Positions 2,521-44,616 of a stretch of 64,000 nt of DNA are shown one piece after another. A model generated the notes under the pieces. That model did no database searches. It was not told the origin of the DNA and was given only the letters and a program-made list of their open reading frames with translations. How positions within the stretch are numbered: position 1 is the stretch's first letter; each line of letters begins with the position of its first letter. The DNA is from an uncultured Candidatus Binatia bacterium (GTDB taxonomy: Bacteria > Desulfobacterota > Binatia > Bin18): positions 390,135 to 454,134 of the forward strand of contig CBDBEO010000001.1 of the NCBI GenBank assembly GCA_965204455.1. The letters run 5' to 3'. Both the position numbers and the translations under genes were made by a program.

Positions 2521-4697
2521 TGCACAGAAACGCCGGTCTGTACAACTATCCCGGCGGCCTGGCCACCAAGAGCGACCTGCACCTGCTCGTCCCCGGTACT
2601 GGCACGGCGCAGTGTCTGCCCACCATGATGGGCGGCACCGACTGCACCATTCCGACCAAGGTGGATCAACTGCGCCTGCGCTTCAGCTACGACCGGATCG
2701 AGGCCTCCTGGAAGCCGCATCCGGCCGGCTCCACCCCGAGCGGCTATGCGCTGGAATATAGCCCCGACGCCTCCACCTGGACCTCCGTGACGCTCAGCCC
2801 CGCCACGGCCACCACGGCCACCATCTCCGATTTGACCCCCGGCCAGACCTACAATGTGCGGGTGCGGACGACTGGCACCCCCACCACCCCTTGGTTGTGG
2901 TCCGAAGTCCGCCTGCCCCTTCTCAGTGATTACCCCGACACGGTGTCGCTGACGGCCAGCACGCGGCGGCCGGCGGAGGGCGCCACGGTGCGGGTGACGG
3001 CGACCTTGAGTACGCCTGCGGCGGCCGGCGGCGTGACGGTGGAGTTCCAGGCCTACCCCACGGGCGCCATAGGCGACCACCCGGCGTATCATGGGGTAAA
3101 CAGTGGCGACTACGTACTGTTGGACGCAGGAGCAGGAGCATGTGGCGACGGACGACAACAACATAGATTTAACCACGCATCAGGTGGCGTCACCGAGGAG
3201 ATCGAGATCCCCGAGGGCGCGCGGCAGGCCACAACGACGCTGTGCGTGTGGGACGACGCCGAGCCTGAGGGCAACGAGACGTTCGCGGTCACGGTCAGCG
3301 GTTCCTGGCCGCTGACCGACTACCCGGAGCTCGTATTCACCATCCCGGCCAACGACGGCGGCACGCCTAGCCCGCCTACCGGCGGTCCCACCGGCGGCGG
3401 TCCCACCGGCGGTGGCGGCGGCGGCACCCGCACCCCGCCCGACCAGCATGGCGACACCCCGGACGAGGCCACCGGCCTCAACCCCCGCGGGTATGCCACC
3501 GGCAGCATCTCCCGCACGATTGCCGCCCGCCTCCAGAGCCGCACCGACATCGACTATTTTACCCTTGACCTGCCCTACGCCGGCGTGCTGATCGCCCACA
3601 CCACCGGGGGCGACACCACCGGCCGCCTGTACCAAGCCCAAGCTGAGGGTACGCCCGTCCTCATTGCCACCGATACCGACAGTGGCAGCGGCGCCAACTT
3701 CCGGCTCGGCGTGGCCGTTGAACCCGGCACCTACTACCTGGCCGTGTCGGCCGGGGCCAGCTTCGGGGACTACCGGCTGCTGGTGGACTACACCCCGGCC
3801 TTTGTCGAGAATCCCGCCCCCAATGCGCCCCAGAGCGGCCTCGGCGTGCTGTCCGGCTGGGTGTGCGACGCCGACACGGTCGAGATCGAACTGGTCCCGG
3901 AAAGCGGCGAGACCCAGATGTGGGTGCCGGCCACGGGCACGAGTCGGGCCGACACCGCCGGGGTGTGTGGCGCGGACACCACCGACACCGGCTACGGCCT
4001 GCTCTACAACTGGAACCTGCTCGGCGACGGCGCCCACACCGTACGGGTCCGTATCAACGAGGTGGTGTTGGCCGAGCGGGCCATCACCGTCACCACCCTC
4101 GGCGCTCACCCCGAGCAGGAGTACCGCCGGGGGCTGTGGGCCACCTCGGAACTCCCCGACTTCCCGGACGCGGGTCAGACGACCACGCTGCGCTGGGAGG
4201 AAGCCTTGCAGAACTTCGTCATCGCCAGCGGGGAGGGCAGCGACGGCGGCGAACAACTGACGCCCGAGCAGGCGCGGTTGGAGAATCCCGCGCCGGGCTC
4301 GTTCCAGAGCGGCCTGGGCGTCATCTCCGGCTGGGTGTGCGAGGCCGAGACGGTCGAGGTCGTGTTTGAGCTGGAGGGCACGGACGCCCCCCTGACCTTC
4401 GAGGCCGGCGCGGGCACCGAGCGGGCCGACACGGCCGACCAATGCGGCGACGCCGACAATGGCTTTGGCTTGCTGTTCAACTGGAACCTGCTGGGCGACG
4501 GCACCCATACCGTGCGGGCTTTGGCCGACGGCGAGGAGTTCGCCCACAGCACCGTAACGGTGACGACGCTGGGCGAGGAGATCGCGCGCGGCTTGCGCCA
4601 GACGCACGAGATTGCGGACTTCCCGGCGGCGGGCCAGACCACGACCGTGGAGTGGCGGGAGGCGCAGCAGAATTTCGTGATTACGGCGGTAGAGTAG
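1864..4697 (+). pseudogene. 3' portion of the IS-disrupted LRR protein gene. It encodes ~9 further plant-type LRRs, an FN3 domain, a Calx-beta domain, a Gly/Pro-rich linker, a PPC (pre-peptidase C-terminal) domain and two tandem ~130-aa Cys-containing domains of unknown function.
   Basis: LALYLGSNELSGSIPPEIGN continues the LRR register. FN3: WKPHPAGSTPSGYALEYSPDASTWTSV...TPGQTYNVRVRT. Calx-beta: DYVLLDAG...EEIEIPEGARQATTTLCVWDDAEPEGNETFAVTVSG. PPC: DIDYFTLDL...EPGTYYLAVSAGASFGDYRLLVDY. Duplicated domain: ENPAP..QSGLGV(L/I)SGWVC...RADTA..CG.AD..(Y/F)GLL(Y/F)NWNLLGDG.HTVR. Confidence 0.75.
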
Positions 4698-4787
4698 CGG
4701 CCGGCCCGGCCGCGCCCCGCCCCCTGCGGCGCGGGACTGCTCCCTCGGGGGGGAGGGTGGTGTCTCACTCTGCCATGCTCTTTTCGA

Positions 4788-4809
4788 GGCGGGCGCCGTG
4801 GCGCCCGCC
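4788..4809 (+). terminator. GC-rich hairpin (ggcgggcgcc/ggcgcccgcc) about 90 nt downstream of the LRR gene stop. Putative intrinsic terminator without a clear U-tract.
   Basis: A perfect 10-bp inverted repeat seen in the sequence. Confidence 0.3.
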
Positions 4810-4921
4810 CTCGGAGCGGGCCGCCGGGGATGAGACAGGCAAGCATTTTCAGACTGAGACACTACCGCCGGGACAGCTCCGCAATAGCGGGGACGGTCCG
4901 AATCTGGTACAGCATGGGGCC

Positions 4922-5641
4922 ATGCAGGTGATCGGACATCGGGGGGCGGCGGCTTTGGCGCCTGAAAATACCTGGGCCAGCTTTGACCTGGCGGTGTCTC
5001 TGGGGGTGGACGCGATTGAAACCGATGTGCGGGCGACCAGCGACGGAGAATTGATCCTGCTGCACGATGAACGGCTGGCCCGGACTACCAACGGTCAGGG
5101 CTTCGCGCGCGAGACGCCGTGGGCGACGATCAAGGAGCTGGATGCCGGAGGATGGTTTGGCGCCGAGTTTCGGGGCGCCCGGGTGCCGCTGTTCGGCGAG
5201 ACTCTGCTTCGCTACGGCGGGCGGATTCCGCTGATCATCGAGGTCAAGCAACTCGACCTTGAGGTCCGTGTCCTGGATTTGGTCCGGGAATATGGCCTGC
5301 TGCACGCAGTCGCTTTTACCTCGTTCTATTTCCCGGTCGTGCAGAATCTCAAGACGCTGGCGCCGGAGGCCAAGGTAGGATTTCTGGCCTCTGACGTGCA
5401 CGAGCAGACAGTCGAGCGGGTCATTACGGCCGGGCTCGACCAGTTCTGTCCTCCGGCCAAGGCCATCTCGCCCGACCGGGTCCGTGCCTGGCAAGCCCTG
5501 GGCCTGGACATCCGGGCCTGGGGGGTAGGCGACCCCGAGCTGATGCGGGTCGCAATGGCGGCCGGGGTGGACGGGATGACCGTCGATTTTCCCCACCTGC
5601 TGCTGGAAGCCCTGGGCCGGCGTCCCCCTCGGGGGGACTGA
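4922..5641 (+). CDS. ugpQ: Glycerophosphodiester phosphodiesterase (GDPD family).
   Basis: MQVIGHRGAAALAPENTWASFDLAVSLGVDAIETDVRATSDGELILLHDERLARTTNG. Length of 240 aa is typical. The ORF-track start at 4442 is an upstream open-frame extension. Confidence 0.85.
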   Translation: MQVIGHRGAAALAPENTWASFDLAVSLGVDAIETDVRATSDGELILLHDERLARTTNGQGFARETPWATIKELDAGGWFGAEFRGARVPLFGETLLRYGGRIPLIIEVKQLDLEVRVLDLVREYGLLHAVAFTSFYFPVVQNLKTLAPEAKVGFLASDVHEQTVERVITAGLDQFCPPAKAISPDRVRAWQALGLDIRAWGVGDPELMRVAMAAGVDGMTVDFPHLLLEALGRRPPRGD

Positions 5642-7618: not shown

Positions 7619-8365
7619 CTAATGCGCCTCAATCGGCCCCTGGGTCTGGCCGGTGATAAACTGTTGGACAACGGGGTCGGTCGAGGCTTGCAGCTCTTCG
7701 GGAGTGCCGGCCGCCACAACAGAACCCTGATGCAGCATAGCGATATGTGTGGCCAGTGAAAAGACCTCCGGGATTTCATGGCTGACCACGACCGCAGTAA
7801 AGTTGAGCAGGCCGTGCAAGTCAAGGATGAGCTGGTGGATCGTGTTGACCCGAATGGGGTCGAGGCCGGTGGTCGGCTCGTCGAACAGCATGATTTCGGG
7901 GTCGGTCGCCAGCGCCCGGGCCAGCGCCGCCCGCTTGAGCATGCCGCCCGACAGCTCGGACGGAAATTTGGCATCCACGCCCGACAGGCCGACCTGGGCC
8001 AGGCGCTGATGCACTTTGTCGCTGATGGCTGCTTCTGACAGGCGGGTTTTTTCACGCAGCGGAAACGCGACATTGTCGTACACCGACAACGAGTCAAACA
8101 GAGCGCCGCCCTGGAACAGCATGCTGAAACGATCCCGCATCCGGTTGAGTGCCCGGCCGCGCAGGGCGCTGACCTCGACATCGTCAACCCACACCTGTCC
8201 GCGATCCGGTCGCAGCAGGCCGATAATGTGCTTGAGCAGGCAGCTTTTGCCCGTCCCGCTGCTGCCCACGACAACATAGATCGTCCCGGTCGGGATCTCC
8301 AGATTGATCCCCCGCAACACGTGCTGGGAACCGAAGGATTTGTGCAGGTCGTGAATCCGAATCAT
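7619..8365 (-). CDS. mlaF: ABC transporter ATP-binding protein MlaF.
   Basis: Walker A GSSGTGKS, ABC signature LSGGMLKRAALARAL, Walker B IMLFDEPTTGLD. Confidence 0.9.
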   Translation of the reverse strand: MIRIHDLHKSFGSQHVLRGINLEIPTGTIYVVVGSSGTGKSCLLKHIIGLLRPDRGQVWVDDVEVSALRGRALNRMRDRFSMLFQGGALFDSLSVYDNVAFPLREKTRLSEAAISDKVHQRLAQVGLSGVDAKFPSELSGGMLKRAALARALATDPEIMLFDEPTTGLDPIRVNTIHQLILDLHGLLNFTAVVVSHEIPEVFSLATHIAMLHQGSVVAAGTPEELQASTDPVVQQFITGQTQGPIEAH

Positions 8366-37443: not shown

Positions 37444-37538
37444 GCTCTTCCTCCCTGTGGCTGACGTGTTGACACGGTCCTCTTTTGGGGCAGTATACTC
37501 CTTTCGTTCCATTTTCCTATGCCAACGGAGGAAGCGAT

Positions 37539-38555
37539 ATGAAAACGCAGCGGCTGGGCCGAACCGGGCTCAAAGTGTCCGAACTGTGTCTGGGAACCAT
37601 GACCTTTGGACGCCAGTGCGACGAAGCGCTGAGCTTTGCCATCATGGATACCGCGTGTGAGGCTGGGGTCGATTTTTTTGACACCGCAGACGTCTATCCG
37701 GTCGGCGGGGATGCCTCGACGGTCGGCCGCACCGAGGACATTGTCGGAAAATGGCTCAAGGGCAGACGCGAGCAGATTGTCCTGGCCACCAAGTGCTGGG
37801 GCGCCATGGGACCCCAGCCGAATGATCGTGGCCTGTCCCGCAAGCACATCCTGGCCGCCATAGACGAGAGTCTGCGCCGGCTGCAAACCGACTACATCGA
37901 CCTCTATCAGGTGCACGCGCCGGATCTCGACACCCCGATAGACGAGACCCTGGCGGCGCTCGACGACGTGGTGCGGCAGGGCAAGGTCCGTTATATCGGC
38001 TGCTCGAACTTCCAGACCTGGATGCTGGCCAAAGCCCTGTGGACCAGCGACAAACACGGCCTGGCCCGTTTCGACTGCGTACAGCCGCGCTATAACATCC
38101 TGTTCCGGGAAATCGAACATGAGCTGCTGCCGCTGTGTCGCGATCAGGACGTCGGGGTGATCCCCTACAATCCGCTGGCCGGCGGCTTTCTGACCGGCAA
38201 GCATATGGCCAACCAAGCCAGCCAGGCCCCCTCGTCCGAGACGCGTTTCGCGCTCGAAGGCCGGGCCGGACGCACCTACAAGAAGCGCTACTGGCAGGAG
38301 GCCCAGTTTGCCGCCGTGGCCCACCTCCACGAGTTCTTCTCGGCCCGCAACAAGCCGCTGGCCCAGGTTGCGATTGCCTGGGTGCTGGCTCAGGACGGCA
38401 TCACCTCGCCAATCGTCGGAGCCACCTCGCCCGAGCAGCTGCGCCAGTCGCTGCCGGCGGTTGAGCTGAGCCTGGACGAAGAAGAGCTGGCGGTGTGCGA
38501 CGCGGTGTGGTTTGAGCTGCCCCGGCTCAAAGACCCGATGGTGGCGCTGCGCTGA
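37539..38555 (+). CDS. Aldo/keto reductase family oxidoreductase.
   Basis: MKTQRLGRTGLKVSELCLGTMTFG...DFFDTADVYP...IDLYQVHAPD...VRYIGCSNF. GGAGGAAG RBS. Confidence 0.85.
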   Translation: MKTQRLGRTGLKVSELCLGTMTFGRQCDEALSFAIMDTACEAGVDFFDTADVYPVGGDASTVGRTEDIVGKWLKGRREQIVLATKCWGAMGPQPNDRGLSRKHILAAIDESLRRLQTDYIDLYQVHAPDLDTPIDETLAALDDVVRQGKVRYIGCSNFQTWMLAKALWTSDKHGLARFDCVQPRYNILFREIEHELLPLCRDQDVGVIPYNPLAGGFLTGKHMANQASQAPSSETRFALEGRAGRTYKKRYWQEAQFAAVAHLHEFFSARNKPLAQVAIAWVLAQDGITSPIVGATSPEQLRQSLPAVELSLDEEELAVCDAVWFELPRLKDPMVALR

Positions 38556-38581: not shown

Positions 38582-39823
38582 TCACAGCATATCGGAAAAG
38601 CTGCCCTGACCGGGGACGAACAGGCGGCTGTAGAAGCGCATCGCGTACGAGTCGGTCATGCTGGACAGAAAATCGCAGATGACCCGCTTGCAGGCCGCTT
38701 CGTCCCCCTCGCCCAGGGCGCGCTGGTAGCGCTCGGCCTGCTCTTCGGGCAGTAGACCGACCGACTCGCGGCCCTGGTCCAGCACCTCAAACAGACGCGC
38801 CAGAACCGTTTGGCCCTTGTAGCCAAGGGTGGCCACGCGCGGGTTACGAATCACTTTCTGAGACTCAAAGGCTTTCAGGACTTCGATCCGCACCCGCTCG
38901 GAAAAGGCCGCGTCAATGCGACCGGTTGGCTGGACCTCGACCGTACTGGCAAAGGCCGAGATGAGGTCGCGGGTCAGCATCTTATGCGCCGCCCGGCCGG
39001 CCGTGTGTTCCAGGGCGTCGAGCTGGGTCGCGAGCTGGGTCAGCACCGCGCCGGCCGTTTCAGCATCGACCGTCCGGTGCCAGGCGCCGAGCGCAGCGTT
39101 GACCTCGGGCAGCAGACGCTGGGCCGGAAAGCGGCGAAAGTCGGCCAGCGTGATCAGGCCGGCTTGCAGGCTGTCTTCGATGTCGTGGACCGAATAGGCG
39201 ATATCATCGGCCACGTCCATGATCTGGCACTCCGGGCTGCGCTGCTGACCGCTGCCGGTCGCCCGGCTGATCGCCTCAACCAGCTCACGATCTGCGGTGT
39301 AATAGCCCTTGACCGGTTCGTGCCCGGACGGAAGCAGCTCTGCGGCATTGAGACAGGTCTTGTATTTCAGCAGCCCGTCGAGGCTGGGGTAGGTGAGGTT
39401 CAGGCCCGGATAGGCGGTGTGTTTGTGTTCGAGCCGGGTCACGATGCGGAAGGTCTGGGCGTTGGCCTCAAAGCCGCCATAGGGCCGCATGCGGTCGTGC
39501 AGGAGGCGTTCCCCGGCGTGGCCGAAGGGGGCGTGGCCAAGGTCGTGGGCCAGGCAGACCGTCTCGACCAGGTCGGTATCCGCGCCCAGCGCCAGGGCAA
39601 TGCCCTTGGCAATCTGGGCGACTTCAAGCGAGTGGGTCAGCCGGGTCCGAAAGAAATCGCCCTCATACACCCCGAACACCTGGGTTTTGCCCTGGAGGCG
39701 CCGAAACGCGGCCGAGTGGATGATGCGCGCCCGGTCGTGTTCAAACTCGGATCGGTGGTCGTTGGCCGGTCGTGGCGGCTCCAGGGTATGCCGACGGGCG
39801 TCTGAGGGACGGGCGAACTGCAC
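38582..39823 (-). CDS. dgt: dGTP triphosphohydrolase-like HD-domain protein (Dgt family).
   Basis: RTRLTHSLEVAQIAKGIALALG...CLAHDLGHAPFGHAGE (HD motif)...IMDVADDIAYSVHDIED. Confidence 0.85.
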   Translation of the reverse strand: MQFARPSDARRHTLEPPRPANDHRSEFEHDRARIIHSAAFRRLQGKTQVFGVYEGDFFRTRLTHSLEVAQIAKGIALALGADTDLVETVCLAHDLGHAPFGHAGERLLHDRMRPYGGFEANAQTFRIVTRLEHKHTAYPGLNLTYPSLDGLLKYKTCLNAAELLPSGHEPVKGYYTADRELVEAISRATGSGQQRSPECQIMDVADDIAYSVHDIEDSLQAGLITLADFRRFPAQRLLPEVNAALGAWHRTVDAETAGAVLTQLATQLDALEHTAGRAAHKMLTRDLISAFASTVEVQPTGRIDAAFSERVRIEVLKAFESQKVIRNPRVATLGYKGQTVLARLFEVLDQGRESVGLLPEEQAERYQRALGEGDEAACKRVICDFLSSMTDSYAMRFYSRLFVPGQGSFSDML

Positions 39824-40864: not shown

Positions 40865-41094
40865 TCAGGAGCCGGTTTTGGAGTGCTGAGAGCCGGACAG
40901 GAAAATGACCAGGCCCACCGCCAGACAGCTGCTCCCGCACACGTACATGGGGGTAAAGCCGGCCTGACTGGCGATGCTGCCCATCAGCACCCCGCCCAGC
41001 CCCATGCCGAGATCGAGCCCCTGGGCGAAGGTGGCCATGCCCAGGCCGCGTCGTTCGGGTGTCAGGCGGTCGATCATCCACGCGCCGGCGGCAG
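40865..41094 (-). pseudogene. 3' remnant (last ~75 codons) of an MFS-type transporter gene. Truncated at the boundary of the low-GC R-M island.
   Basis: C-terminal TM helices (...GMATFAQGLDLGMGLGGVLMGSIASQAGFTPMYVCGSSCLAVGLVIFLSG). The upstream frame stops (TAA) exactly where GC content drops at ~41095. Confidence 0.55.
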
Positions 41095-41127
41095 CAAATC
41101 TTTACCTGTTATGTAGAGAATAGGTTC

Positions 41128-41829
41128 ATGATCCTGCTGGCCATCGGGTGGGTGTCGGAAAAGGCTGGACATCCTCCCTGGGGCATGAATAATAATCCAG
41201 TGGACATTGAAGAGGAAATACGACGCCTCGCCGACAAGTACGCCGCGAATCTCGAAGCCCGTGTTGAGCGTCGCGTGAAGGAAATGGAATCGGATGACAG
41301 GAGCCATCACCTGATCTATCGTGTCCTCGGCGTGGCCGACGAGGAAGGGAGTCTCATAGACATCTACCAGAACAAAGGACGGTTCCTTTATAGATATGCA
41401 GGATCGTTCTTGGAAGAAGCGGCGAAGCTCTGTTTCCGCGAGAGGTATCCAGACTCTGCTTCCGTCCGAATACCGAACACCTTGGGGCAGCGCCCCAAAA
41501 CTTTCGAGATCGACTGCCTTGTTGAAGACCGGGACGCGGTAGAGATTAAGTGGCGGGATGCGACAACGGACGGGGATCACGTCACCAAGGAACATACGCG
41601 CCTGCAAAACATCAAAGCCGCTGGCTACAAGCCTATCCGCGTCATGTTCTACTATCCAAATCGAGAACAAGCGCGACGAATCCAAAACACGCTTGAAACT
41701 CTCTACAGGGGTATAGGCGGCGAGTACTATTACGGAGGAGGCGCGTGGCGGTATATCAGGGAATATACAGGAGTCGATCTGAAGACCATCCTGGAAAGGA
41801 TCGCAGATGAGCGCCCTCGGAATGCCTGA
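41128..41829 (+). CDS. Type II restriction endonuclease candidate (PD-(D/E)xK fold).
   Basis: FEIDCLVEDRDAVEIKWRD (D...E.K catalytic motif). Located in a low-GC (~45%) island. Its last 23 nt overlap the methyltransferase gene. Confidence 0.6.
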   Translation: MILLAIGWVSEKAGHPPWGMNNNPVDIEEEIRRLADKYAANLEARVERRVKEMESDDRSHHLIYRVLGVADEEGSLIDIYQNKGRFLYRYAGSFLEEAAKLCFRERYPDSASVRIPNTLGQRPKTFEIDCLVEDRDAVEIKWRDATTDGDHVTKEHTRLQNIKAAGYKPIRVMFYYPNREQARRIQNTLETLYRGIGGEYYYGGGAWRYIREYTGVDLKTILERIADERPRNA

Positions 41830-43084
41830 GGCGAGAACGTACGTGGGCGACTGCCTAGATGTCCTCCGCGATATAGAGCCGTCATCGGTCGATCTTGCCT
41901 ATATTGACCCACCGTTCTTTACGCAGAAGATACACAGATTAAACACAAGAGACGGGTCTACGACATTCAGCTTCCGGGATATTTGGGACAGCGATCGTTC
42001 CTACTCCGATTTTATCTGTCAGCGAATTCGCCGCACACGGACTGTCCTGAAGAGTTCCGGCAGCCTGTTCTTCCATTGCGATAAAGCAGCATCCCATATT
42101 ATTCGTTTCTTACTTGATAGTATATTCGGGCCTGAGCAGTTTCGATCCGAGATAATTTGGTCTTTTAGAAGATGGTCGAATACAAAAAAGGGTTTGTTGC
42201 CGGCTCACCAGACAATTTTCTTTTACTCGAAGACTGACGACTTCAAATTCAATACATCCTACCAGGAATATTCGCCCTCAACAAACATCGACCAGATCAT
42301 GCAGAAGCGGATTCGGGATTTCCGTAACAAGACGATTTATGCACGGAATGAGAAAGGTGAGGTTGTTGGAAACGGGACCAAAAAAGGTGTTCCCTTGTCG
42401 GATGTCTGGGAGATCCCATTTCTCAATCCAAAAGCGAAAGAGCGTGTTGGTTTCCCCACTCAGAAGCCAATTCTCTTGATGAAGCGAATCGTTGAACTTG
42501 TGACAGATGAGGGGGATTGGATTCTGGACCCGTTTTGCGGCAGTGGTACGACGCTCGTTACCTCGAAACTCCTCAACAGGAACTCCATAGGGATGGATGT
42601 TTCCGAGGAAGCTGTCGAACTGACAAAACGAAGGCTTGAGACTCCTCTCGTTACAGAGTCGCCCTTGGTCCAGAGAGGGAGAGAATCCTACCGTCAACAT
42701 GAATCGTATGCCGCTGCGCATCTCTTTGGTGTCGCCTACACACCTGTTCATCGAAACGCAGGTATCGATGGCCTGTTGAAAGAGGAAGTTGACGGACTCC
42801 CCGTATTCGTTCGCGTTCAGCGCGAAGAAGAATCCGTCAGTCAGGCTGCCTCTGCTTTGAGGAAGGCAGCGAGAAATAAAGGCGATTGCAGGCTGGTGGT
42901 TATCGCTACACACGCAGATTTGTTTGATTCCGGCCGTTTCGCCGCGGTCGATGTCATTCCATCGACCGCGTTCGTGTTGAACGAGTACACCAATAAAAGA
43001 AGGGTGAGCAGGCAACGCGACCTCCGCGCCGGCGACGAGGGACTTATCTCCCGCGGCCAGAAACACAACCCGAATGGAGTCTGA
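41807..43084 (+). CDS. Beta-class amino-DNA methyltransferase (N6-adenine or N4-cytosine) with a C-terminal Mrr-cat-like (restriction-endonuclease-like) domain.
   Basis: Motif IV DPPF (AYIDPPFF) precedes motif I (LDPFCGSGTT), the beta-class order. The C-terminal ~140 aa contain NAGIDGLL...VFVRVQRE...CRLVVIATHADLF (Mrr_cat-like GIDG/QxK region with K replaced by E). Confidence 0.75.
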   Translation: MSALGMPEARTYVGDCLDVLRDIEPSSVDLAYIDPPFFTQKIHRLNTRDGSTTFSFRDIWDSDRSYSDFICQRIRRTRTVLKSSGSLFFHCDKAASHIIRFLLDSIFGPEQFRSEIIWSFRRWSNTKKGLLPAHQTIFFYSKTDDFKFNTSYQEYSPSTNIDQIMQKRIRDFRNKTIYARNEKGEVVGNGTKKGVPLSDVWEIPFLNPKAKERVGFPTQKPILLMKRIVELVTDEGDWILDPFCGSGTTLVTSKLLNRNSIGMDVSEEAVELTKRRLETPLVTESPLVQRGRESYRQHESYAAAHLFGVAYTPVHRNAGIDGLLKEEVDGLPVFVRVQREEESVSQAASALRKAARNKGDCRLVVIATHADLFDSGRFAAVDVIPSTAFVLNEYTNKRRVSRQRDLRAGDEGLISRGQKHNPNGV

Positions 43085-43190
43085 CGGAATCCGGGAATGG
43101 GCGGTTACCCGCCGAGAATCGGGCTTCGGCTCGGCAGTAGCAAATCCGCACCGGCTGTGCTCTAATCGCGGGCCGAACAGGAGGGCTGCC

Positions 43191-44360
43191 ATGTCGATTG
43201 AAACCCTGAAGGACAAAGCCGCGATTGTCGGTGTCGGCCACACCGAGTACTCCAAGGATTCGGGGCGCAGTGAGATCAGCCTGGCCATTGAGTGCATTCA
43301 GCGGGCGATTGACGATGCGGGTCTGCAAACCAGCGACATTGACGGGATTGCCAAGTATACGATGGACAATAACGACCCGGTCGAGCTGGCCGCCCACCTC
43401 GGGGTGCCCGAGCTGCGCTTCTTCGGCGAGGTGGCCTACGGCGGGGGCGGCGGGCCGGTCGGCTCGATCCTGCTGGCGGCCATGGCGGTGGCGACCGGTA
43501 TGGCCGAGACGGTCATTGCCTTTCGGGCCATGAACGAGCGCTCCGGTCGGGGCACGCCCCGCTTTGGACAGGCTGCGGTGCGCCGCGGCACGCCGGGAGT
43601 CGGCGCCTACCTCGAACCCTACGGTCTGTTCAGTCCGGCCCAGATGGTGGCCCTGGCGGCCCGGCGGCATATGCATTTGTACGGCACCAAGAGCGAACAT
43701 TTTGGCGCTATTGCCGTTGCCTGCCGCACCCACGCTCAGACCAATCCCAACGCGGTCATGCGCGACCGGCCGATCAGCATTGAGGACCACCAGAACTCGC
43801 GCATGATCGCCGACCCGCTGCGCCTGCTCGACTGTTGTCTGGAAACCGACGGCGGGGCTGCGGTGGTGGTCACCAGCGCCGAGCGGGCCAGAGACCTGAA
43901 ACACACGCCGGCGTACATCATGAGCGGCGGGTTCGGAGCGGGCGAGTGGAATACCCAGCGGGTGGTCAAGGATATTGAGAGCCGGGAGACCGAATCAACC
44001 GTCGTGGCCAAAGCCATGTTCGGCCGGGCCGGCATCAGCCACGCCGACCTTGATGTGTGCTACCTGTACGACCACTTCACGCCGCTGGTGCTGATGGCTT
44101 TTGAAGAACTCGGCTTTTGTGAGCGCGGCGAGGGCGGACCGTTTGTGTCGGACGGCAAACTGCTGTGGCCGAACGGCAGCCTGCCGTTCAATACCAGCGG
44201 CGGCAACCTGTCCGAGGGCTATATCCACGGCATGGAAAACATTGTGGAAGCCGTGCGTCAGCTGCGCGGCCAAGCCATCAACCAGGTCAAGGATGCCGAG
44301 ATTGCCCTGGTAACCTCGGGCAACGGTGTGCCCAATACGGGCATGATTCTTCATAATTAG
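43191..44360 (+). CDS. Thiolase-like protein (SCP-x / lipid-transfer-protein type, nonspecific 3-ketoacyl-CoA thiolase family).
   Basis: AAIVGVGHTEYSKDSGRSE..., CLETDGGAAVVVTS, YLYDHFTPLVLMAFEELGF, NTSGGNLSEGYIHGM. GGAGGG RBS. Confidence 0.7.
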   Translation: MSIETLKDKAAIVGVGHTEYSKDSGRSEISLAIECIQRAIDDAGLQTSDIDGIAKYTMDNNDPVELAAHLGVPELRFFGEVAYGGGGGPVGSILLAAMAVATGMAETVIAFRAMNERSGRGTPRFGQAAVRRGTPGVGAYLEPYGLFSPAQMVALAARRHMHLYGTKSEHFGAIAVACRTHAQTNPNAVMRDRPISIEDHQNSRMIADPLRLLDCCLETDGGAAVVVTSAERARDLKHTPAYIMSGGFGAGEWNTQRVVKDIESRETESTVVAKAMFGRAGISHADLDVCYLYDHFTPLVLMAFEELGFCERGEGGPFVSDGKLLWPNGSLPFNTSGGNLSEGYIHGMENIVEAVRQLRGQAINQVKDAEIALVTSGNGVPNTGMILHN

Positions 44361-44421: not shown

Positions 44422-44616
44422 CTACGGGTCGCCCGAACGGGGCGTATAGCCCGGACACTCCAGGACCGGCAGACGGGGGTATTTGGCGTAGCGGTCATCC
44501 TCCTCCGCCCGCGAGCAGTACAAAAAGCGCGAGCCTTTGGCGCTGATGATTTCGCGCGCATAGACACATGCTTGACATAAGCCGGGCTGCGGCTGGGCGG
44601 GACGGTGTGTGTCCAT
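44422..44616 (-). CDS. Small Cys4 hypothetical protein (64 aa).
   Basis: CQAC...C...C spacing (GLCQACVYAREIISAKGSRFLYCSRAEEDDRYAKYPRLPVLECPGY). Family not recognised. Confidence 0.35.
   Translation of the reverse strand: MDTHRPAQPQPGLCQACVYAREIISAKGSRFLYCSRAEEDDRYAKYPRLPVLECPGYTPRSGDP

Follow-up and report, generated by a model that had tools for sequence, protein, structure and literature searches.

The 64-kb window analysed in this work, a single stretch of DNA from an uncultured Candidatus Binatia bacterium, carries a 2.05-kb segment of low GC content that lies between the remnant of a major facilitator superfamily (MFS) transporter gene and a thiolase-like gene of the host, and that encodes a type II restriction endonuclease (R) and a DNA methyltransferase (M) (Table 1). 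The two genes are adjacent and intact and overlap by 23 nt, the methyltransferase gene being presumably co-transcribed with the endonuclease gene that it overlaps. The insert consists of R and M only, with no integrase, transposase or other mobility gene in the cassette, and both genes are under purifying selection, with ratios of non-synonymous to synonymous substitution (dN/dS) of 0.13-0.14. We regard it as likely that the segment constitutes an intact two-gene type IIP restriction-modification (R-M) cassette of the ApaLI family, horizontally acquired by the bacterium that hosts it.

Table 1. Features of the R-M locus, with positions counted from the first letter of the window
Feature	Position	Strand	Evidence
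MFS transporter remnant (last ~74 codons; pseudogene)	40865..41087	-	70-aa open reading frame; NCBIfam PRK05122 positions 330-392 of 404
Deletion junction, 1,191 bp missing	41085..41087	.	blastn against L001; L006 alike
Left copy of flanking direct repeat	41082..41113	+	Repeat search family D1, spacing 2,046 bp
ApaLI-family type II endonuclease gene	41128..41829 (likely start ATG 41185)	+	Pfam RE_ApaLI E = 1e-96
Methyltransferase catalytic domain, residues 1-280	41807..42646	+	Pfam N6_N4_Mtase 1.5e-48
Methyltransferase C-terminal Mrr_cat-like domain, residues 281-394	42647..42988	+	AlphaFold2, Pfam hits of homologues, hhalign, Foldseek
Methyltransferase tail (residues 395-425) and stop codon	42989..43084	+	Ragged alignment, low model confidence (pLDDT)
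Right copy of flanking direct repeat	43128..43159	+	Continuous with intact upstream element of thiolase-like gene
Host thiolase-like 'lipid-transfer protein' gene	43191..44360	+	NCBIfam PRK07855 1.4e-147
dGTPase-like host gene	38582..39823	-	HD and HD_assoc domains; PADLOC dGTPase 4.9e-128

The drop in GC content described by the initial annotation is real, the lowest-GC 2-kb stretch of the 64 kb starting at position 41101 (51.3%, against a window mean of 63.5% and a standard deviation of 2.4%), but its size had been overstated: positions 41095-43090 have a GC content of 51.2%, not 42-45%, compared with 65% for the adjoining 2 kb to the left and to the right, and values of 43-44% are reached only at ~42000-42450. 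The quantitative difference from the flanks extends to third codon positions, at which GC content is 61.5% in the endonuclease gene and 55.9% in the methyltransferase gene, against 76-81% in flanking genes. Related loci were gathered by exact-protein look-ups and a genome scan, together with a metagenome scan using the thiolase-like protein that yielded 80 loci, and neither R nor M occurs in any of these 80. The cassette is present at the same place in L007, the GTDB species representative, a metagenome-assembled genome (MAG) designated 'uncultured Candidatus Binatia bacterium' (phylum Binatota), whose flanks are ~95% identical to those of another cassette-bearing locus, L001, and therefore to those of the window. 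Deviant composition and absence from related loci uphold the initial proposal of a horizontally acquired type II R-M island.

The endonuclease and methyltransferase genes

The first gene, initially put forward as a PD-(D/E)xK endonuclease candidate, matches the Pfam family RE_ApaLI (PF09499) over its full length (profile positions 2-188 of 189; 322.6 bits against a cut-off of 25) and the PADLOC model for type II restriction endonucleases (REase_II) at 3.3e-96. The motif on which the candidate had been proposed, EID...EIK, is invariant in its homologues, with D129...E139-I-K141 (numbered from position 41128) shared by all five aligned sequences, the homologues being 65-89% identical. Alignment with four homologues shows that the first 19 residues are confined to the Binatia lineage, which makes the ATG at 41185 (214 aa) the likelier start, and the dN/dS of the gene against L007 is 0.14.

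In each of the four other hosts examined, an RE_ApaLI gene lies directly upstream of the methyltransferase gene, in the order R then M. These hosts are Phaeobacter inhibens, Paracoccus denitrificans (where the pair stands beside conjugation genes), a MAG and a 6-kb Psychrobacter plasmid, on which the partner gene bears the RefSeq name 'ApaLI family restriction endonuclease'; in three of them the GC content of the cassette lies 5-12 points under that of its flanks. The cassette of the window shares with these ApaLI-family members, found on plasmids, beside conjugation genes and on chromosomes, the order of R then M with overlapping genes, and it shares with the ApaLI system itself (type IIP, GTGCAC) an end-to-end family match and an intact D...ExK motif. 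It differs from the ApaLI system in its host, an uncultured member of Binatia, and its assignment to the family is by model match. In the MAG (L094 3382-5233, on a 2.47-Mb contig) the R-M pair lies within the dcw gene cluster, between neighbours whose Pfam domains fit murG and murC, and has a GC content of 32% against 44-46% in the flanks.

Members of the ApaLI family recognise GTGCAC and cut after the first G, a trait that is ascribed to the present system through its family membership. On that footing GTGCAC is a reasonably probable recognition sequence, and the endonuclease would be expected to cut GTGCAC when unmethylated. Avoidance of GTGCAC was considered as an independent test of specificity and set aside: the window contains 9 such sites against 12.3 expected, a count that is uninformative on specificity and has to be entered against the assignment. 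Expectations were derived from a fourth-order Markov model for 6-bp palindromes over the whole window. The same model finds several other palindromes to be strongly under-represented, namely GAGCTC (2 observed against 20.6 expected), CTCGAG (4 against 30.0), GGGCCC (4 against 23.3), AGATCT (2 against 11.2) and AAGCTT (1 against 6.4), and this depletion may be the trace of earlier or still active R-M systems with other specificities in the lineage.

The second gene (41807-43084 on the forward strand; 425 aa) had been annotated as a beta-class amino-methyltransferase, an assignment that is confirmed. Residues 28-274 match N6_N4_Mtase (PF01555) with 166 bits against a cut-off of 26.7, and the protein matches the PADLOC model MTase_II at 2e-154. 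DPPF (motif IV, residues 34-37) is followed by the recognition region and then by FCGSGTT (motif I, residues 243-249), both motifs being invariant in the alignment, and the position of DPPF ahead of FCGSGTT corresponds to the beta-class motif order. The nearest solved relatives in the PDB are CcrM, M.MboIIA and M.RsrI, and the dN/dS of the catalytic domain is 0.10. The best NCBIfam matches are to 'adenine-specific' models, but they fall under the respective cut-offs; from the DPPF motif and the family, the enzyme would protect host DNA, most likely through methylation at N6 of the single adenine of the site.

The last residues of the methyltransferase (395-425) form a tail in which the alignment becomes ragged after column 400 and the predicted local distance difference test score (pLDDT) is 44-62; no purifying selection was detected in the last ~30 residues, and the tail is probably disordered. 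A simple terminator scan flagged a perfect hairpin with an 11-bp stem (CGCGGTCGATG...CATCGACCGCG) at 42943-42970 on the forward strand, inside the coding region of the C-terminal domain, which is probably incidental.

The methyltransferase's C-terminal domain

Between the catalytic domain and the tail lies an additional domain that had drawn attention in the initial annotation on two counts, its resemblance to the Mrr catalytic domain and the supposed rarity of a methyltransferase fused to a nuclease fold. The fusion is not unusual. The 120 best database homologues (59-94% identity) are 357-430 aa long, and the domain is present in all 38 of those that were aligned (57-94% identity), with many of its residues invariant; the REBASE-derived PADLOC model MTase_II PDLC03339 covers query residues 9-394, the domain included; and methyltransferases of this type are paired with an ApaLI-type endonuclease in all four other hosts. 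A profile of the domain matches 223 of 1.84 billion cluster representatives, most of them short proteins in which the match lies at or near the C-terminal end, together with a few of ~400 aa; the short ones look like truncated gene calls. The domain is itself under purifying selection, with a dN/dS of 0.15. Taken together, family alignment, model coverage, profile search and R-M pairing argue that the domain is a constant, selected part of the ApaLI-type methyltransferase family, rather than a rare fusion. A description of the domain was not found in the literature on M.ApaLI, pA40P2 or Mrr-like methyltransferase domains, a search to which most subscription journals and REBASE were external.

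Among phage records the domain was found only in the Tenacibaculum jumbo phages PTm1 and PTm5, in what looks like a decayed copy of an ApaLI-type cassette. The PTm1 locus (L096 1486-2923; NC_049340.1 158036-159473) contains a 67-aa open reading frame (ORF) for a 'type II restriction endonuclease' and two methyltransferase fragments, one of 39 aa and one of 260 aa; the longer one keeps the Mrr-like C-terminal domain at 31% identity to that of the window.

The resemblance to Mrr_cat (PF04471) is sustained, as a resemblance, by several independent lines of evidence. When close homologues are scanned singly, 18 of 31 match Mrr_cat, with a best E of 1.8e-5, and no other family is matched by more than three; among 50 diverse members (25-56% identity) Mrr_cat is matched by 10 (best 1.5e-4), Mrr_cat_2 by 1 and other families once each. 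In full-length proteins the Mrr_cat matches always fall at profile positions ~27-87. Comparison by hhalign of an alignment of the diverse members with a profile based on EcoKMrr yields P = 0.0045 over 93 columns, placing GIDG on GIDG and spanning the whole alpha-beta-beta-beta-alpha-beta core with its elements in order. The AlphaFold2 model of the isolated domain (pLDDT 81) has an alpha-alpha-beta-beta-beta-alpha-beta-beta-alpha topology, with core elements (in the numbering of the domain model) H20-25, E31-33, E42-44, E53-57, H64-75 and E82-87, and a model of the full-length protein shows the same topology after a low-confidence linker at residues 285-296. Searches with Foldseek return from the PDB, as top matches, the DdmD nuclease-helicase, Bax1, FokI, BbvCI, N.BspD6I, FAN1 and Cap4 (best E 4e-3; template modelling (TM) score ~0.4), and from the viral models of BFVD, after a phage methyltransferase homologue, proteins labelled 'restriction endonuclease' and 'Mrr domain-containing' as well as RecB-family and VRR-NUC proteins. 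On this evidence, much of it from predicted structures, the C-terminal ~115 residues probably descend from the Mrr_cat/PD-(D/E)xK fold as a diverged homologue. We class the domain as Mrr_cat-like and not as a member of the family, in that the core fold is present while the score lies below the Pfam threshold and the catalytic motif is not the canonical one.

Several results weigh against common ancestry with Mrr. The C-terminal 149 aa of the protein encoded in the window match nothing in Pfam at E <= 10, and full-length homologues score 14.5-16.5 bits, under the Mrr_cat gathering score of 21. The significance attained with hhalign is marginal and is reached only with the deeper domain alignment; a shallower alignment finds nothing when compared with the single EcoKMrr sequence, and comparison with a shallow Mrr profile gives P = 0.05, which is not significant. 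Profile searches of PDB sequences with two domain alignments retrieve no nuclease, the only matches being chance ones to ribosomal protein L36 and PyrR. All individual statistics being marginal, from the missing Pfam match of the window copy and the sub-threshold bit scores to the TM score of ~0.4 and the lack of a PDB sequence match, the resemblance might be convergent or accidental, and the extension an unrelated small alpha/beta domain, for instance part of the target-recognition apparatus. We consider this improbable, given that Mrr_cat is matched by 28 of 81 members while one other family is matched by three members and the rest by one each, that the Mrr_cat matches share one register, that PD-(D/E)xK and Mrr proteins make up most of what independent structure-based searches retrieve from two libraries, and that the hhalign alignment takes in every core element and puts GID opposite GID.

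Descent from the Mrr/PD-(D/E)xK fold is thus the preferred reading, and comparison with the Mrr catalytic domain of EcoKMrr shows how far the two have diverged. They have in common the alpha-beta-beta-beta-alpha-beta core, the G-I-D-G motif with its Asp in place, and a hydrophobic beta-3 strand followed by a conserved helix. They differ in that Mrr has Q-x-K where the present domain has (R/K)-x-Q, falls under the Pfam threshold and is doubtful as a nuclease, and in that Mrr_cat follows a winged-helix reader of modification, whereas here the domain is fused C-terminally to a methyltransferase. Two other origins were considered and rejected. A duplicated copy of the endonuclease finds no support, hhalign detecting no relationship between the domain and an alignment of ApaLI-type endonucleases, and CcrM's C-terminal domain, which has a SAND-like six-stranded fold, offers a functional analogy only.

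The initial annotation had also proposed that the canonical Lys of the nuclease motif is replaced by Glu. The position in question, E340, is variable (P, E, K, D, S and others), and in the best-supported register, in which hhalign sets VFVRVQR on the VYVQAKR of Mrr, the (Q/E)xK triplet corresponds instead to R336-V337-Q338, so that R336 falls opposite the Gln and Q338 opposite the Lys; this register agrees with the predicted beta-3 strand (333-337). A census of the 50 diverse members finds D321, R or K at 336, and Q338 in all 50, R316 in 49, N317 in 47, K358 in 46 and E342 in 45. The more general claim, that a nuclease-like fold carries a non-canonical active-site motif, stands, with (R/K)xQ in every member. 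As judged from these alignments, the canonical D...(Q/E)xK motif is systematically replaced by D...(R/K)xQ.

With such a motif the domain would no longer cleave DNA, and it most likely acts as a non-cleaving accessory module, attached by a flexible linker and serving in DNA binding and/or dimerisation. The analogy is with CcrM (PDB 6PBD), the best PDB sequence match of the catalytic domain and likewise a beta-class methyltransferase in which a short flexible linker leads to a C-terminal domain of ~90-115 aa; CcrM needs that domain for its activity and uses it to bind the non-target strand (PMC6787082). The likeness has its bounds, the CcrM domain being six-stranded and SAND/PWWP-like, not PD-(D/E)xK (PMC6787082), and CcrM being an orphan cell-cycle methyltransferase that recognises GANTC. 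Speaking against a purely accessory role, the invariant Asp and Gln and the 90% conserved Glu near the former active site exceed what a backbone-binding module would need, and this conservation may point to an altered or residual catalytic role or to ligand binding. Type IIG/IIC enzymes such as BpuSI and MmeI also have a PD-(D/E)xK-type domain on the same chain as a DNA methyltransferase; their methyltransferase is gamma-class with a fused recognition domain, and they have no separate R gene. Their nuclease domain is N-terminal and canonical (for BpuSI, the published account places the PD-ExK domain at the N terminus), in contrast to the C-terminal, non-canonical domain described here, which is accompanied by a separate intact endonuclease gene.

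A more active part for the Mrr-derived domain has a small but appreciable chance of being correct, either as a nuclease whose active site has been swapped (D...(R/K)xQ...E) or as a pseudo-nuclease that docks on the endonuclease and times restriction. Taken by itself, an interaction module of the second kind, which would govern restriction by attaching to the ApaLI-type endonuclease or by holding two methyltransferases together, seems to us unlikely. In its favour, PD-(D/E)xK domains commonly dimerise; every cassette examined has R first and M overlapping, with no gene for a C protein; and in those cassettes the methyltransferase family is found only beside ApaLI-type endonucleases. The usual linkage of cognate R and M genes accounts for that co-occurrence just as well, however, and the hhalign comparison of domain and endonuclease detected no sequence relationship. 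A still active nuclease, with an active site rearranged around D321, E342, R/K336 and Q338 and lending the methyltransferase a further means of restriction, directed for instance at DNA that is foreign or carries different modifications, is distinctly unlikely as well. Its appeal lies in the conservation of these four positions in members down to 25% identity and in the purifying selection on the domain, and precedents are at hand in BglII and BamHI, active PD-(D/E)xK enzymes with Gln or Glu in place of Lys, and in Cfr10I/NgoMIV, where the acidic ligand is supplied from a helix. Against it stand the Arg or Lys found in 50 of 50 members at the metal-ligand position (Q/E) of the Mrr motif, the dedicated and intact endonuclease already present in the system, and the lack of any counterpart here to the modification-sensing N-terminal domain of Mrr.

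The insertion site and the truncated MFS gene

The cassette is bordered by a direct repeat of 32 nt with 72% identity between its copies. The 8-mer AGCAAATC occurs in the 64 kb only at 41093 and 43139, one in each copy, and in L007 the 14-mer GGCAGTAGCAAATC is found exactly at both borders of the cassette. The repeat sequence is single-copy in more than 15 empty sites, from relatives that are 80-87% identical in the neighbouring protein, and there it belongs to a conserved element (GTGGCAAA...T(G/A)TGCTCTAATC) located ~23 nt upstream of the start codon of the thiolase-like gene. In the window the right copy runs on into this element, with TGTGCTCTAATC at 43156-43167. Other hosts have unrelated DNA upstream of their endonuclease genes, from which it follows that the left copy stems from the host and does not belong to the cassette.

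In at least 12 R-M-free loci an MFS gene (59-71% identity) divergently adjoins the thiolase-like gene, with ~250-430 bp between the matched coding regions, and in L001, in which the start codons of the two genes lie 2,302 bp apart, subtraction of the repeat spacing leaves 256 bp, a distance that fits the empty sites. The cassette went into a ~260-bp divergent intergenic region that separates the MFS transporter gene from the thiolase-like gene, and it came to lie within the conserved element immediately upstream of the latter.

Such an event would match the mode of R-M gene insertion with long target duplication described by Furuta, Abe and Kobayashi 2010 (PMC2853133), with a repeat at the lower limit of the definition. 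The published criteria (PMC2853133) call for an insert of R and M of <20 kb with no other mobile-element genes, and for a direct repeat of >30 bp that is single-copy in the uninserted genome. The present insert resembles this mode in comprising R and M alone, 2 kb long, of lower GC content and with no mobility gene, and in having a repeat that is single-copy in R-M-free relatives. The difference, which counts against the interpretation, is that the repeat is short (~27-32 nt) and diverged: 72% identity over 32 nt lies at the edge of the >30-bp criterion, and in L007 the exact core is 14 nt.

The conserved element, of the form GTGGCAAA-N~14-T(G/A)TGCTCTAATC (43128-43167 in the window), was observed in more than 20 related metagenome loci linked to Binatia, for instance L028 at ~3620-3660, and it may be a promoter or operator. 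A sigma-54 reading was dropped: a fitting GG/GC spacing is found at some of the loci only, and the GG itself is gone from the window's lineage. As for sequence divergence, synonymous divergence between the window (41185-43084) and L007 is 0.38-0.47 for R and M against 0.11 for the thiolase-like gene, and all three values are ~0.1 against L006, a further locus taken up below; allelic exchange of the cassette between lineages, or a weaker constraint on codon usage in foreign genes, are possible reasons for the raised R-M values.

On the left of the cassette, the MFS remnant consists of a 70-codon ORF (40865-41077 on the reverse strand) with homology to the intact gene reaching 41087 (~74 codons), close to the ~75 codons first estimated, and in L001 it has its collinear counterpart at the 3' end (7865-8087) of the intact gene for a 405-aa protein. 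Three loci, L001, L002 and L004, are 99.6-99.7% identical to the window (99.3-99.7% for L001 and L002 alone), L001 and L002 encoding an identical methyltransferase. In L001 and L002 the cassette stands beside an intact 405-aa MFS gene, and L004 and L007 likewise have the undeleted sequence. Comparison with these intact orthologues defines the deletion as 1,191 bp of L001 (8088-9278) that the window lacks, comprising the first ~332 codons of the MFS gene together with 196 bp of intergenic DNA. Aligned to L001 by blastn, the window gives two collinear blocks with a 3-nt overlap, the junction having 2-3 nt of microhomology and one odd base, and the 43 nt upstream of the ATG at 41128 and both cassette genes are untouched.

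Because L001, L002, L004 and L007 combine the cassette with intact MFS sequence, insertion and deletion are separable, and the deletion is an event of its own. A later, independent deletion of 1,191 bp took away the MFS gene's 5' 80% together with most of the intergenic DNA up to the left repeat, leaving the cassette intact. The initial view that the insertion itself had deleted the 5' part of the MFS gene, suggested by the closeness, to within a few nucleotides, of the deletion's right end to the left flanking repeat, is very improbable in light of near-identical contigs and a species-representative MAG that have the same cassette, site and repeats beside intact MFS sequence.

One observation sits badly with this sequence of events. 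The deletion junction is shared by L006 (96.6% identical to the window; junction at ~9270), a more distant locus, and not by the closer L001, L002 and L004, a pattern that does not fit simple clonal descent and implies recombination within the population, recurrence or mixing in assembly.

Neighbouring host genes and significance of the locus

The dGTPase gene that had been reported ~1 kb away is present on the reverse strand (Table 1), but it is a resident gene of the host and not part of the island. R-M-free relatives also have a dGTPase-like gene (66-71% identity) in synteny with the thiolase-like gene, and a defence-island reading involving it was rejected despite the PADLOC match, the gene being syntenic in relatives without the cassette. 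The dGTPase-like HD protein may have a housekeeping or a defence role.

Further observations concern other genes of the neighbourhood. A 64-aa ORF that contains Cys residues (CxxC...C...C) lies at 44422-44616 on the reverse strand, between the thiolase-like gene and a gene for an Mla-type lipoprotein; tblastn finds it at 47-61% identity in about a dozen related loci, and it matches no Pfam or PADLOC family. An aldo-keto reductase gene, present in the window as a single 356-aa ORF (37485-38555), occurs in L001 as two pieces of 90 and 214 aa (4539-5555) and as one 338-aa gene in L002 (4539-5555) and L006, the split in L001 being a frameshift or an assembly error.

In practice, the locus adds one more ApaLI-family R-M system, found in a poorly known candidate phylum (Binatota). 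It also offers a clean natural series, from the empty site through insertion with a probably duplicated target to a nearby deletion, and it illustrates that an R-M cassette standing beside a truncated gene does not mean that the insertion caused the truncation. On the evidence of its homologues, the whole M.ApaLI-type methyltransferase family would carry an unannotated, selected and probably Mrr-derived domain with a systematically altered active-site motif, which bears on how beta-class methyltransferases recruit accessory DNA-binding modules, or on whether a 'dead' nuclease fold regulates. Were the domain to prove a nuclease with a swapped active site or a docking partner of the endonuclease, it would add an undescribed layer of control or activity to the subunit that carries out modification in a classical type IIP system.

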